Origin: a virus
Lineage: Duplodnaviria; Heunggongvirae; Uroviricota; Caudoviricetes
Strand: one strand, 5' to 3'
IMG/VR virus record: IMGVR_UViG_3300021399_000121
Coordinates: 1 to 43,501 of that record
Length of the DNA stretch: 43,501 bases
Shown one piece after another: positions 95 to 43,501 of this stretch (the first letter of the stretch is position 1; the number at the start of each line of letters is the position of its first letter). The translations under genes and the position numbers were made by a program. The notes under the pieces are model-generated. The model did not search any database, had not been told where the DNA came from, and saw only the letters and a program-made list of their open reading frames with translations.

Positions 95-589
95 TTAATG
101 AATATCAAATAATTTTACTCTTTTAGGCTTTTCTATCGGAGTTGGACTAATATAAAATACATCAGTGCCTAAATCTAAAGATCCTTTTAAAAGCTCTGCT
201 TGTTGTTGCTCTAATCTCCATTTATTTTGATAATATCTCATTGCATTATCATATACATAACCAACGATTCTAATGCTCCCATGAGATTTACTAACATCAC
301 CATCACTTACATCATACCAATAAACTAAAGTACGATAAATTCCAGTCATTGAACGACCATCTTCAATTAATTCTTTTATTTGTTGATCAATTCTTCGTTT
401 ACTATAACTTGTTCCATATTTATTTTTACAGTATTCGTGAATTTTATTATAATATTCTTCATTTTCCATCTTTTGATCATAACATTTTTTATGATAATAT
501 CTATTACCAATATGCACAAAATCAGGATATTCTTCACGAGAAAAAATTTCTTCACAATATGGACATTTTACATTTGGAAGTTTTGCCAT
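95..589 (-). CDS. Zinc-finger (CPYC...H..C) hypothetical protein, probably replisome-associated
   Basis: 164-aa ORF with an SD (AGGAGA), its own consensus promoter, an N-terminal CxxC...HxxC and a TAA stop. Lies between the ATPase and the putative helicase. Confidence 0.7.
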   Translation of the reverse strand: MAKLPNVKCPYCEEIFSREEYPDFVHIGNRYYHKKCYDQKMENEEYYNKIHEYCKNKYGTSYSKRRIDQQIKELIEDGRSMTGIYRTLVYWYDVSDGDVSKSHGSIRIVGYVYDNAMRYYQNKWRLEQQQAELLKGSLDLGTDVFYISPTPIEKPKRVKLFDIH

Positions 590-619
590 AATATTCTCCT
601 AAAGATTATTCATAATAAT

Positions 620-648
620 ATTATAGCATAAAAAATAACGGCTGTCAA
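620..648 (-). promoter_or_regulatory. Consensus sigma70/sigmaA promoter, TTGACA-17-TATAAT with extended -10 TG
   Basis: Minus strand reads TTGACA (648-643) gccgttattttttatgc TATAAT (625-620). Confidence 0.9.
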
Positions 649-670
649 GAATTACCTTGACAACCGTTAT
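630..670 (-). terminator. Intrinsic terminator after the ATPase gene
   Basis: 15-bp inverted repeat (635-649 / 656-670) with one G-U pair on the minus strand and a 6-nt loop, followed by a T6 tract. Confidence 0.8.
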
Positions 671-678
671 AAAGAAGA

Positions 679-1686
679 TTATAAACCGAGCCCAACTTGT
701 TCAGTTAACTCGTTTACAATTAATTCAAGCTGTTCAGCTTGTTTAGGTGTAGCATCAGAAACTTTCTTTCCTTTGCCAAGATATTTATCAGTAATTTCAA
801 CAATACGTGGTGCCCAATCAGTACCAAATGCATCACCAGTTGCATTTTGAATTTTTTCAACCAATGTATTAAATTGATTCATTAATTCATTAAAATCTAG
901 AATTTGCGGCACTGATTCAACCTTTACTGGAGCATCTGTAACAAACTTGTTATCATATTCTGCAGCTTGTTTATCGATAGCATCACCGATAGCATTTACG
1001 AGATTGTCATAATTAAATTCAATACTATCTGGCGTATATTTAAAACGAGAACCAGCTACAAATCGAGGTGTTTGCCGCATAAATCCAACAGTATGAATAG
1101 TTCCATCTTCCTCTTGGATTGGATGCGCATAAATAATTAAGTCGCTCATGCGGTCTACGATTAGACGAGGACGATTTCCAAGAGTGGGACAAATTTGATT
1201 ATATTCTTTACCATTTTCATCTGTGAATACTTTATCTTGACTATGGCTAATCATAACAAGACCATAACCAATTTGTGGAATTAAACGAAGAGCTTCATCA
1301 AATTCCTTTGATACCATATTATAGCCTTTTCCATAGGCAAGATCAGCGATATTTTCTACACCTTCACGATTACAAATATACTTTTCACAAAGATCATAAG
1401 CAATGTCTACAGTATCTACAATAATATTATCATAGGTTGCGTGACCTTCATCAGTTTTAAGCTGTTTAAGAACACTTTTAAACTCTGCCCATGAATTAAT
1501 TGGAAGAGCCATAATTCCTGGAATGGTAAGATAACCAGCTTCAAAGCCGAGAAGAAGAGCTTTAGAGAACTTTGAGGCTATAGTTGTCTTACCAGTTTTA
1601 GGAGCACCGTATAGAAGTATAGTATAGCCCTTTAGATCTCTTGATACTACGTGCGGTTTAACCGCAAAAATATCAACACTAGCCAT
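679..1686 (-). CDS. Sak4-like / AAA_24-type P-loop ATPase (phage recombination, single-strand annealing)
   Basis: Walker A LLYGAPKTGKTT, Walker B IIVDTVD and a VMISHS motif. 335 aa, directly downstream of the SSB-like gene, the usual Sak4/SSB pairing. Confidence 0.8.
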   Translation of the reverse strand: MASVDIFAVKPHVVSRDLKGYTILLYGAPKTGKTTIASKFSKALLLGFEAGYLTIPGIMALPINSWAEFKSVLKQLKTDEGHATYDNIIVDTVDIAYDLCEKYICNREGVENIADLAYGKGYNMVSKEFDEALRLIPQIGYGLVMISHSQDKVFTDENGKEYNQICPTLGNRPRLIVDRMSDLIIYAHPIQEEDGTIHTVGFMRQTPRFVAGSRFKYTPDSIEFNYDNLVNAIGDAIDKQAAEYDNKFVTDAPVKVESVPQILDFNELMNQFNTLVEKIQNATGDAFGTDWAPRIVEITDKYLGKGKKVSDATPKQAEQLELIVNELTEQVGLGL

Positions 1687-1700
1687 ATACTACCTCCTAA

Positions 1701-41224: not shown

Positions 41225-41228
41225 AGAT

Positions 41229-41274
41229 AAAGGTCTTGTTTTATACAAGACCTTTTTTCTTTTTTTTAAATAAC
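41229..41274 (+). terminator. Intrinsic terminator after the tape measure gene
   Basis: AAAGGTCTTGT-tttat-ACAAGACCTTT (41229-41255) followed by long T tracts. Confidence 0.9.
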
Positions 41275-41299
41275 AAAAATTAATAATAAATAACAATTA

Positions 41300-41319
41300 A
41301 AAATTAAATATAATAGAAA
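41300..41319 (+). promoter_or_regulatory. Candidate late-promoter motif (AAAATTAAATATAATAGAAA)
   Basis: Lies between the terminator and the tail fibre SD. 19/20 identity to 31895-31914. Confidence 0.55.
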
Positions 41320-41350
41320 TATAAAAATAACGGCTATAAAAGGAGAATAG

Positions 41351-43501
41351 ATGGATACTGTATCTTATCTAACTATTAATGATGAAACAAAAGAAATAGC
41401 GGATAAAGCTAGCCGTGACAATATTAATAATATTATAGCAACAGTTACAGCGCATGATAAAGATATTGAATATATACAACTTGAGACAGGGCCGCAAGGT
41501 TCAATTTTAGCTTCAATTGATGATGCTCAAGCTCTTGCCGTTTCTGCTCAAGTTAGTGCGGCAACAGCAAATGCTTCAGCAGTATATGCAGATGAAAAAG
41601 CTACAGAAGCACAACAAGCCGCTGAAACAGCACAATCACATGCGGACGATGCATCTAACGCCGCACAAACAGCTTGAGATAAAGCTAATGACGCAACTGA
41701 TGCGGCAGTTGAAGCGAATAGAAAAGCTGATGATGCTACAACCGCAGCAAGTGTAGCTTGAAATCAAGCTAATATAGCTGCTGGCGCAGCTGAAACTGCT
41801 GAGGATAAAGCTAATAGTGCTACAATTGCAGCTGATAATGCTGCCAAAAAAGCTGATGACGCTACAAGATCAGCGGCTTCTGCTCAAAGAGATGCTATTT
41901 ATGCTAATCAATATGCCAATGGCGCTCTCGCTGGAATGTCTACTTTACAATCTGTAATTGATACAGTTCAATGGTTCGCTGATCATAAAGTATTAACAGA
42001 AGATACCACTGTTGACCCAGAAAAAAATTATTATACTTTAGATGAAACAACTGGAACTATGTCAAAAGCGGAATTAAACGGTAGTGAAAATCCGCAAGAA
42101 TTAGAATTATATGAACTTGATGAAACAATTCAAAATTATGTAGTATCACGTATTGCAGAAACTCCCGATGGTCTTTATATTTTATCAACAACTACTGGAT
42201 GAAGGATTTTAATATCGCCTGGTACAAACACTTATTTACCAGGTGTTTTTATAATTGGTCCAGATGGTGTTATAAAACAAGGAATAACAGGCGCTATCGA
42301 TGAAGATCATCCTGGTGGAATTCATTTTGACAGTAAATCTCCTTTTTATATTGGCGATGAAAATGCCTATATTAATTTTGATGGCAATGGTAAGATTGCT
42401 ATTGGCGGAGATGGCATCAATATTTATTCCCCTCTTGAAATTGGTGGAACAAAAACTTTAAGTGAAGTATTAAATGATTTAGGTAAAGCAATCGTTGCTA
42501 TAGAATATGGTATTGGTGATTCTCCTGTGAGTCATTCTGATATTCTCGAATGATCAAGTGAAAGTCCTGAATGAACTCCTGGAAAATATATTTGGATGAG
42601 AACCACTGATAATGGTTTAACTTATACTTATACTTGTATCCAAGGTGCTCAAGGTCCACGTGGTGAAACTGGAGAGCGCGGTGAAACAGGGGAACCAGCA
42701 CCTGAAGCAATTGGTATAATATCTGTTGAAACTTCTTATGCATTGAGTACTTCTGAAGATATTATTCCAAGAGACGAAGATTGAAAAGATTCCATCAGTC
42801 AAGATTGATATTCAAATTATTATGACTATGGTGAAATTGGTGAGACTGGTGAAACTGGTATATATGGTGAGACTGGCGAGACTGGTATATATGGCGAGAC
42901 TGGTGCAACTGGTGAACTTGTTTATGATGAAGTTGAAAGTCTTGATGAAGAAAGTCTTTTATCATTAGAAAAGGGAACTTGACTTTGAATTCGTACTATT
43001 ACAACTTATTCAGATTCAAGTTTTACAGTTACTTATCAAAAATCTTATATTGGTACAGATGGGAAAGATGGCAAAAGTGTCTATGTTCAAAGTTCTTCTA
43101 AAGAAAATGGTGTTACCACTGTAGTATTAATTGATGATGATGGAAATCAAACAGAATTAAAAATAGCAGATGGTGAAGATGGTGCTGATGGTATACAAGG
43201 TACTTCAGGATATATTCATATTGCGTGAGCAGATGACATTCAAATTATCACAGAACAAGATGAAACTAAAACTGTAGAAGCAACTGGATTTAGTGTTGAA
43301 GATAGTACTAATAAAAAATACATGGGTGTATATACTGATGAAAATGTAAATGACAGTGGTAATCCTCAAGATTATAATTGAAGTCTTATTAAAGGCGCGG
43401 ATGGCACCTCCGTAACTGTCACAGACATTGAATATGCAAAAACTTCAACAGATGCTCAACCATCTAGTGATGATTTTGAATCTACCATGCCGCAAACAAA
43501 T
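41351..43501 (+). CDS. Tail fibre / receptor-binding protein with Ala-rich coiled coil and collagen-like repeats (partial, runs off the right edge), 11 TGA=Trp so far
   Basis: Frame is open to the window end with only TGA interruptions. Typical fibre repeats have TGA at their Trp positions: (W)SSESPE(W)[12 protein letters not shown](W)L(W)[14 protein letters not shown](W)[10 protein letters not shown]...DYN(W)SLIKG. GXY runs include [18 protein letters not shown]. Confidence 0.85.
42839..42916 (+). repeat. 27-bp tandem repeat encoding collagen-like GETGETGIY units
   Basis: ggtgagactggtgaaactggtatatat / ggtgagactggcgagactggtatatat / ggcgagactggtgcaactggtgaa. Confidence 0.85.

Follow-up and report, generated by a model that had tools for sequence, protein, structure and literature searches.

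Late-gene TGA recoding in an SPbeta-like phage and its probable dependence on a UCA tRNA encoded beyond the contig end

The window analyzed here comprises bases 1 to 43501 of a single 107,501-bp IMG/VR virus contig (IMGVR_UViG_3300021399_000121, hereafter G0), and the late genes in this window are crossed by in-frame TGA codons. This raises the question of how TGA is read in these genes, whether the same codon still ends other genes of the phage and where the machinery for decoding it is encoded. An initial annotation, made from the letters of the window, had proposed a code switch during infection, written into the genome in three steps and driven by factors encoded elsewhere. Taken together, our analysis indicates with considerable confidence that the phage belongs to a known class of stop-codon-recoded phages, that it encodes a UCA tRNA beyond the contig and that its host uses the standard code.

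Codons were counted after gene starts had been curated by ribosome-binding site. The replication block (95-11317) contains 39 TGG and no TGA; the two TGAs of the open reading frame (ORF) at 8432-10318 precede its real TTG start, and the alignment of its product to gyrase/topoisomerase IV B-type proteins (GyrB/ParE) begins at residue 9-13. The middle block (11403-16351) has one or two sense TGAs vs. 29-30 TGG, and the late block (16362-43501) 87 TGA vs. 24 TGG (78% TGA, n = 111). The late block differs from both the early block (Fisher test, P = 1e-19) and the middle block (P = 2e-13), whereas early and middle blocks do not differ significantly (P = 0.19). Therefore, two levels of TGA usage are statistically supported, and not the three that had been proposed. 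The counts behind that proposal were reproduced for the early block (0/39), the middle block (2/31) and the tape measure gene (17/18), while the late block came to 87/111 instead of 88/114.

The steps had further been linked to the strand switch and to a change of promoter type, and only the latter link was retained. There is no significant change in codon usage at about 11.35 kb, where the strand switches between sigma-70-type promoters, but a real step coincides with the first copy of a late promoter-like motif without a -35 element, AAAATTAWATATAAT, at 15641. Exact copies of this motif are found at 15641, 31895 (to 31909) and 41300 (to 41314), all of them intergenic, on the plus strand and upstream of late units; with at most one mismatch, 4 matches were counted vs. 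0.64 expected. The first two genes behind the motif, at 15695-16108 and 16112-16351, are free of Trp codons and therefore uninformative on the code. Genes behind host-type promoters (replication, early and middle genes) are written to translate correctly in the standard code, and in genes behind the -35-less motif about 78% of the Trp codons are TGA. The TGA-rich late genes encode the holin, tail, tape measure and fibres, as well as head proteins and the endolysin outside the window. Two of them (16970-24985 and 32618-41224) fragment into many pieces under code 11 and are open under code 4.

The meaning of TGA was assessed by comparison with related phages. G1 is a complete, distant and non-recoded relative (137.8 kb, with terminal repeats) and G3 a close recoded relative (140.7 kb, 95% complete) that is collinear with G0. 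Two further recoded contigs match the end of G0, namely G2 (92% identity) and NODE_172 (135.7 kb, locus L334, 96-98.6% identity), and an ENA contig, L326, matches the final 10 kb of G0 at 100% identity. The recoded relatives examined were G2-G6, G8, L317-319, L323 and L334-336. Of 32 TGA codons of G0 aligned with G1, 24 face TGG and 4 face Tyr codons; in the 2671-aa late protein alone, which aligns to a protein of G1, this is TGG for 3 of the 4 TGA codons compared. Alignment with G3 covered about 119 sites, at which G3 has TGA (78 sites), TGG (11 sites) or scattered, partly aromatic codons, among which those for Ser, Cys and Gly are not overrepresented. In the terminase-like protein, all five TGA sites fall on W columns of 22 homologues, with W38, W141, W263 and W299 invariant and W429 nearly so. 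The TGA at codon 67 of the metallophosphoesterase gene in the middle block corresponds to TGG in the G3 orthologue by nucleotide alignment and is thus read as Trp, too. Because TGA sites align with TGG or W in relatives, TGA stands for Trp in the late genes, as had been proposed, with its regular sense use apparently confined to them.

As had been predicted, the machinery for this reading lies outside the window, in which no tRNA gene was found. G0 carries 18-20 tRNA genes at 66-74 kb, including a tRNA-Trp(CCA), and no UCA tRNA was detected on the 107.5-kb contig by ARAGORN (default and relaxed settings), Rfam or two regular-expression scans; a tRNA(UCA) is present in every close recoded relative examined. 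In G3, this tRNA is 97 nt long and lies in the region corresponding to the missing part of G0. It is preceded by a promoter (TTGACG-17-TAAAAT) and an ORF of 62 codons, and is itself followed by a terminator hairpin, a holin-like gene and a GH25 endolysin gene (570 aa, 13 TGA; endolysin genes were found to hold 12-16). The same slot, about 11.6 kb beyond the position corresponding to the end of G0 (107501), is occupied by a tRNA(UCA) in G3, G2, L317-L319, L323 and NODE_172. UCA tRNAs of the two-arm type described below occur in 100% of the recoded relatives examined and are absent from all six non-recoded complete or near-complete relatives. Of 80 capsid-anchored loci, those of G3 and its twin were the only ones with a tRNA(UCA) within 10 kb; the other recoded relatives among these loci carry it inside the tRNA array. 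A search for related loci with a single 478-aa protein recovered only G3 itself.

The 62-codon ORF between promoter and tRNA is conserved and contains one in-frame TGA (L039:6269-6457, minus strand, in G3; L316:13537-13725 in G2; about 9250-9430 of L334). Most changes in it between G2 and G3 are synonymous, on either side of the TGA.

We followed the genome of this phage beyond the contig break in public sequence data. A walk with exact proteins (HNH, capsid and a 184-aa protein) reached 4.5 kb and a further 0.7 kb past the end of G0. In a run that holds G0 (X1), contigs tile over its end at a depth of 17-20, and one 11,513-nt record spans the tRNA slot on both sides with unchanged spacing. 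At the slot, 384 nt give no alignment to G2 at ≥80%, which would fit a tRNA of the G3/NODE_172 type, as this differs from that of G2. A Logan contig of 11,513 nt with the same gene layout encodes a tube protein identical to that of NODE_172. Judged from these layouts, the phage very likely has its own UCA tRNA about 11.6 kb past the contig end.

Several tRNA-like candidates were considered and rejected as hidden suppressors. The tRNA gene at contig position 68040-68303 is interrupted by an intron of group I (about 190 nt; Rfam RF00028, 59.9 bits). With the splice placed by the P1 helix and its U-G pair, we read its loop as CUUUUAA, as in a Lys(UUU) tRNA; the ARAGORN call as Tyr needs an implausible splice. 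A "tRNA-???" call in G2 and G3, with the 6-nt loop CGCAAG, belongs to a larger structured RNA that precedes tRNA-Cys and is no UCA tRNA; such cloverleaves lie at L007:4014-4086 and L008:2506-2577. ARAGORN with relaxed settings and introns returned many low-scoring calls in coding DNA, none with a UCA anticodon. The tRNA-Trp(CCA) scores 41.8 bits with Rfam and is also found at L006:1114-1190, L007:1385-1461 and L008:6143-6219, in recoded and non-recoded relatives.

The UCA tRNAs of the relatives have an unusual architecture. Their bodies resemble Firmicutes tRNA-Trp, while ARAGORN calls them tRNA-SeC and the Rfam model of selenocysteine (Sec) tRNA (RF01852) gives 42 bits, under its threshold of 47 bits. 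All 17 diverged members compared have U72, G73 and the UCA loop; as aligned, 11 of them carry A at position 1 and 6 carry G. What would be the variable arm is a covarying stem of 4-7 bp with a loop of 7-9 nt, in which UCCA is invariant and which usually reads N-U-C-C-A-A-A. We read this second loop as a copy of the anticodon loop of an ordinary tRNA-Trp(CCA). Among 25 long UCA tRNAs from an unbiased scan, 14 have this arm, and the other 11 are ordinary selC-like tRNAs with arm stems of 8-9 bp and loops of 3-4 nt. The two-arm tRNAs differ from bacterial tRNA-Sec in their score below the threshold, in U72 with A1 or G1, in the large UCCAAA loop and in serving a genome with 87 TGAs at Trp sites. 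The bacterial tRNA-Trp identity set (G73, A1:U72 and the anticodon CCA in E. coli and B. subtilis) is present in the form of invariant G73 and U72 and a CCA displayed in a 7-nt loop. The second hairpin is therefore probably a handle for the host tryptophanyl-tRNA synthetase (TrpRS), as far as conservation of sequence allows this to be judged. No description of a two-arm UCA tRNA was found in the searchable full-text literature.

Two members of this family deserve separate mention. The suppressor tRNAs of NODE_172 (L334:9428-9524) and G3 (L016:18170-18266) are identical save five anticodon-stem pairs, and the swapped stems (GCGGT/ACCGC vs. ATAGA/TCTAT) are compensated at all five. In the complete recoded relative G6, a two-arm UCA tRNA at 26453-26544 (L253:6453-6544, minus strand) has a T arm without the GTTCGA loop; it was missed by ARAGORN and reaches 25 bits with the Rfam tRNA-Sec model.

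A standard-code host, as the initial annotation had assumed, is very probable: no TGA is found among the 39 early Trp codons, a TGA stop stands at 13274-13276, and recoded and non-recoded relatives have structural genes in common. The gene at 13079-13276 ends in TGA where its G3 orthologue ends in TAG. By this comparison the TGA is a genuine stop, which argues against a host using code 4, and a single codon thus serves this phage both as the stop of a middle gene and as a Trp codon of late genes. If the host itself read UGA as Trp, as do Mycoplasma, Spiroplasma and some uncultured Bacilli, no switch would be needed, and the TGA-poor blocks would be recent acquisitions from standard-code phages. 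The low G+C content (27-35%), the binning of some relatives as "Mollicutes", "Tenericutes" or "Bacilli" metagenome-assembled genomes (MAGs) and the G+C of the TGA-free replication block, a few points above that of 12-32 kb, would be in line with such a history. Yet the tape measure gene equals the replication block in G+C and has TGA at 17 of 18 Trp codons, and the contrast between 0/39 and 87/111 lies within one genome. Further, in close relatives that carry these genes every Trp codon in them is TGG, and the UCA tRNA of this lineage is present only where genes are recoded. Together with the TGA stop, whose orthologue has TAG, these observations make a code-4 host quite unlikely. As to its identity, the bins of relatives are mostly Bacillota, and some labelled Prevotella, Treponema or Methanobrevibacter were interpreted as mis-binning. 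A 590-aa protein encoded on G0 (described below) has Gram-positive pilin domains (SpaA, GramPos_pilinBB) and a match to the LPXTG anchor below threshold; these domains and the prevailing Bacillota bins point to a Gram-positive host. Runs containing sequence of G0 are labelled gut metagenomes, the weaker matches being from sheep, goat and bovine samples. The host is probably a rumen member of the Bacillota (Firmicutes).

With a standard-code host, the phage could also manage without a dedicated suppressor, if its tRNA-Trp(CCA) at contig position 68392-68468 read UGA by first-position C-A wobble or if near-cognate read-through by the host tRNA-Trp sufficed. The Hirsh suppressor of E. coli, with a D-arm change (G24A), reads UGA in this manner, and low-level UGA read-through by tRNA-Trp is known from B. 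subtilis. The phage tRNA, with A1:U72, G73 and a U11:A24 pair, has one additional nucleotide flanking the D stem, and this odd form is kept in relatives with compensatory acceptor-stem changes. It is also present in the non-recoded G1, however, and does not track recoding as the UCA tRNA does, and with 27-34 TGAs per late gene read-through would have to be near-complete; we therefore consider this route unlikely. A switch by protein factors (an inhibitor of release factor 2 (RF2), an RF1 or a TrpRS), for which the initial annotation had pointed to the TGA-free or Trp-free small ORFs of the middle block and of 15695-16351, is very unlikely. Jade phages do carry a module of TrpRS, RF1 and tRNA upstream of their lysis genes, competition by RF2 limits UGA suppression in E. 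coli (PMC12636597), and the small ORFs here are without assigned function. Nevertheless, searches of G0, G3 and G1 for the RF-1 domain (PF00472) and the class-Ib synthetase domain of TrpRS (PF00579) gave no match, so that the release factor and synthetase genes that had been envisaged find no support. The small ORFs show no similarity to translation factors and have no family match, and the acidic proteins of 15695-16351, inside a late transcription unit, would be made after the switch and not before it. Finally, TGA might stand for selenocysteine, serine or glycine, since the UCA tRNA of the relatives is labelled tRNA-SeC, matches the Rfam tRNA-Sec model (E = 2e-6, below threshold), has an acceptor stem of 8 bp in some members and combines a long variable arm with G73, the identity set of seryl-tRNA synthetase (SerRS; PMC7609411). 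This is extremely improbable: TGA sites match TGG or Tyr codons and not Ser, Cys or Gly codons, 87 such sites in the window exclude insertion of selenocysteine by a SECIS element, the arm with its conserved UCCAAA loop departs from the 8-9 bp stems and 3-4 nt loops of Ser and Sec arms, and many members have ordinary 7/5 bodies like Firmicutes tRNA-Trp.

We therefore favor a code switch brought about by a phage UCA tRNA in a standard-code host. In such a switch, the host would terminate at UGA, and late proteins would be completed only once the phage tRNA is present, making late and lysis gene expression dependent on it. As inferred from the relatives, the tRNA of this phage would be 97 nt long and form a stand-alone unit of sigma-A-type promoter, 62-codon ORF, tRNA and terminator hairpin, immediately ahead of the genes for the holin-like protein and the GH25 endolysin. 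Host TrpRS would charge it via G73, U72 and the second hairpin with its N-U-C-C-A-A-A loop, and a release factor, TrpRS or RF2 inhibitor of phage origin would be neither needed nor present. The host-type promoter and the position before holin and endolysin suggest that accumulation of the tRNA could act as a lysis timer, and the gene at 13079-13276 may be extended beyond its TGA after the switch. We give an even chance to the combination of charging by unmodified host TrpRS, a function as lysis timer and extension of this gene.

Several points weigh against this scheme. The walk with exact proteins ended about 700 nt past the capsid gene, short of the slot of the presumed suppressor gene. Charging through the second hairpin is deduced from sequence conservation alone, and a long arm with G73 is equally the identity set of SerRS. 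One or two sense TGAs are already present in the middle operon, the tRNA promoter resembles a host sigma-A promoter and may fire early rather than late, and competition by RF2 would still have to be overcome. The MAG bins of relatives carry labels too varied to point to one host. A regulator-like gene at contig position 102714-103811, with six TGAs of its own, further clouds the sequence of events.

This gene (6 TGA/2 TGG) matches PHROG 5767 "sigma factor" (E = 1.5e-32), has an HNH-like tail and sits behind a host-type promoter-like site; its sigma-like annotation comes from a single PHROG match. A late regulator that needs the suppressor itself would form a feed-forward gate.

The features of the window are compiled in the following table. 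The block at 95-11317 encodes a Sak4-like annealing protein, a GIY-YIG endonuclease fusion, a DNA ligase, the small and large subunits of a topoisomerase II and small ORFs. At the strand switch, the minus-strand promoter (11317-11289) reads TTGACA-17-TATACT and the plus-strand promoter (11348-11376) TTGACG-17-TATATT, each with a TG extension; all genes from 11403 onward lie on the plus strand. The TGA of the gene at 13079-13276 lies 11 nt ahead of the ATG of the next gene. Pfam and PHROG searches gave no match for the proteins of 15695-16351, the small ORFs of the middle block or the 2671-aa protein.

Table. Coordinates and characteristics of the features in the 43,501-nt window
Feature	Position	Strand	Characteristics and evidence
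Replication/early block	95-11317	-	PHROG matches, PDB GyrB/ParE alignment, codon counts
Divergent sigma-70-type promoters at strand switch	11289-11376	both	
Middle block, 7-8 genes	11403-15637	+	Includes metallophosphoesterase (12218-13039) and function-unknown proteins of 493 and 296 aa
In-frame TGA, codon 67 of metallophosphoesterase	12416-12418	+	Domain (Pfam/PHROG) covers residues 5-241
65-codon gene with TGA end at 13274-13276	13079-13276	+	Strong ribosome-binding site
First -35-less late promoter-like motif, AAAATTAWATATAAT	15641-15655	+	
Two Trp-free acidic proteins	15695-16351 (15695-16108; 16112-16351)	+	137 aa (coiled-coil-like stretch) and 79 aa
Holin-like protein	16362-16682	+	106 aa, two hydrophobic helices; sole Trp is TGA, codon 17
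Late protein, family unknown	16970-24985	+	2671 aa; 27 TGA/7 TGG
Three late structural proteins	24999-31562	+	438, 608 and 1125 aa; TGA/TGG 10/6, 6/2 and 13/6
Two small late ORFs	31573-32232	+	90 and 96 aa, one TGA each; 96-aa ORF with Lpp-like leucine zipper
Tape measure protein	32618-41224	+	2868 aa; PHROG tape-measure families; 17 TGA/1 TGG
Tail fibre/adsorption protein, 5' part	41351-43501	+	Whole protein 1863 aa, collagen-like repeats; 11 TGA/2 TGG in window

The window represents the left 43.5 kb of a siphophage genome that is SPbeta-like and measures roughly 135-140 kb. Genes on the identical or near-identical contigs L326, L324 and L334 match the Pfam families YonB, YonD_N, YonG_N, YomW, YomV and YomU_Tube, and the phage is therefore SPbeta-like; tblastn matches of the tape measure protein include SPbeta-like Bacillus phages. 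G0 is without terminal repeat and is rated 74% complete. The absent quarter matches G3 1-29745, with portal, capsid, tail tube, lysis and further replication genes, and L326 extends 4.5 kb beyond the end of G0 into the portal and capsid genes. Base 1 of G0 aligns with the final base (140682) of G3, an independent contig, a coincidence that suggests either that the genome physically ends here or that both assemblies broke at the same point.

Further observations concern other parts of the genome. A full-length ROOL RNA (RF03087, 331 bits) stands at the head of the tRNA array (contig 64746-65322), and the 590-aa protein with pilin domains, encoded directly after the array (contig 68745-70517), contains no TGA codon. 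In the closest full relative (L324:7261-9907), the terminase-like gene is called in several pieces around a LAGLIDADG-like ORF; in G0 it is unbroken (585 aa) and followed by an HNH gene identical in at least 23 contigs.

Among known systems, SPbeta (Spbetavirus) has in common with this phage the Yon/Yom structural families, a very long tape measure and a genome size that is about 135-140 kb here. It differs in that the likeness is confined to the level of protein families and that the present phage is an uncultured phage from the rumen of sheep or cattle. The SPbeta genome presumably uses the standard code throughout.

The recoding itself is already known and ordinary for this class of phages. 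Borges et al. (bioRxiv 10.1101/2021.08.26.457843) described TGA-to-Trp recoding of late genes in gut phages of low G+C, including Firmicutes phages from cattle, with replication genes in standard code, close standard-code relatives and suppressor tRNAs near the lysis genes. The phage described here adds a well-resolved example of this 2021-22 phenomenon, with a sharp boundary at the late promoter motif. Suppressors were detectable in only 35% of the TGA-recoded genomes of Borges et al.; here, the gene reported missing in about two thirds of such genomes would lie past a contig break, and several UCA tRNA copies in relatives escape ARAGORN.

The closest match is probably the Agate clade of Borges et al. 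(Firmicutes hosts; cattle, pig and tortoise), as judged from the description in that paper. Shared features are low G+C, standard-code replication genes, in-frame TGA in structural and lysis genes, close non-recoded relatives and a predicted standard-code host, to which the relatives of G0 add a suppressor by the lysis cassette. Jade phages differ by their "code change module" of RF1 and TrpRS, none of which is found in G0, G3 or G1. A further difference from the published phages is that TGA still ends one gene of the phage described here, and the two-arm design of the suppressor in its relatives was not described by these authors. In crAss-like phages (PMC9523058), stop reassignment (TAG to Gln or TGA to Trp) is likewise restricted to late genes and accompanied by phage suppressor tRNAs, but they are an unrelated podovirus lineage with Bacteroidota hosts, and their metaproteomic proof concerns TAG to Gln.

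The more valuable lead is the architecture of the suppressor. Should the CCA hairpin indeed be a handle for TrpRS, it would be a natural way to charge a tRNA with a changed anticodon, with a bearing on tRNA identity and on work on genetic-code expansion. Seki et al. 2025 (PMC12636597) tested thirteen tRNA(UCA) species of phages in E. coli extracts, where they decode UGA as Trp. These share the UCA anticodon and G73 with the tRNAs of the relatives; a long variable arm or second CCA loop is not mentioned in the text consulted, and their best pair depends on a TrpRS of phage origin, no counterpart of which occurs here. Allo-tRNAs and selC-like tRNAs with 8/4 or 9/3 folds (Mukai et al. 2017, PMC5389517) also come from rumen Clostridia and phages, have a long variable arm and in some cases a UCA anticodon with A1:U72, and the G3/NODE_172 tRNA folds as 8/4 in ARAGORN. 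They differ in accepting Ser, His or Cys, whereas the two-arm tRNAs correspond to Trp by their codons, have mostly 7/5 bodies and display a fixed UCCAAA loop.

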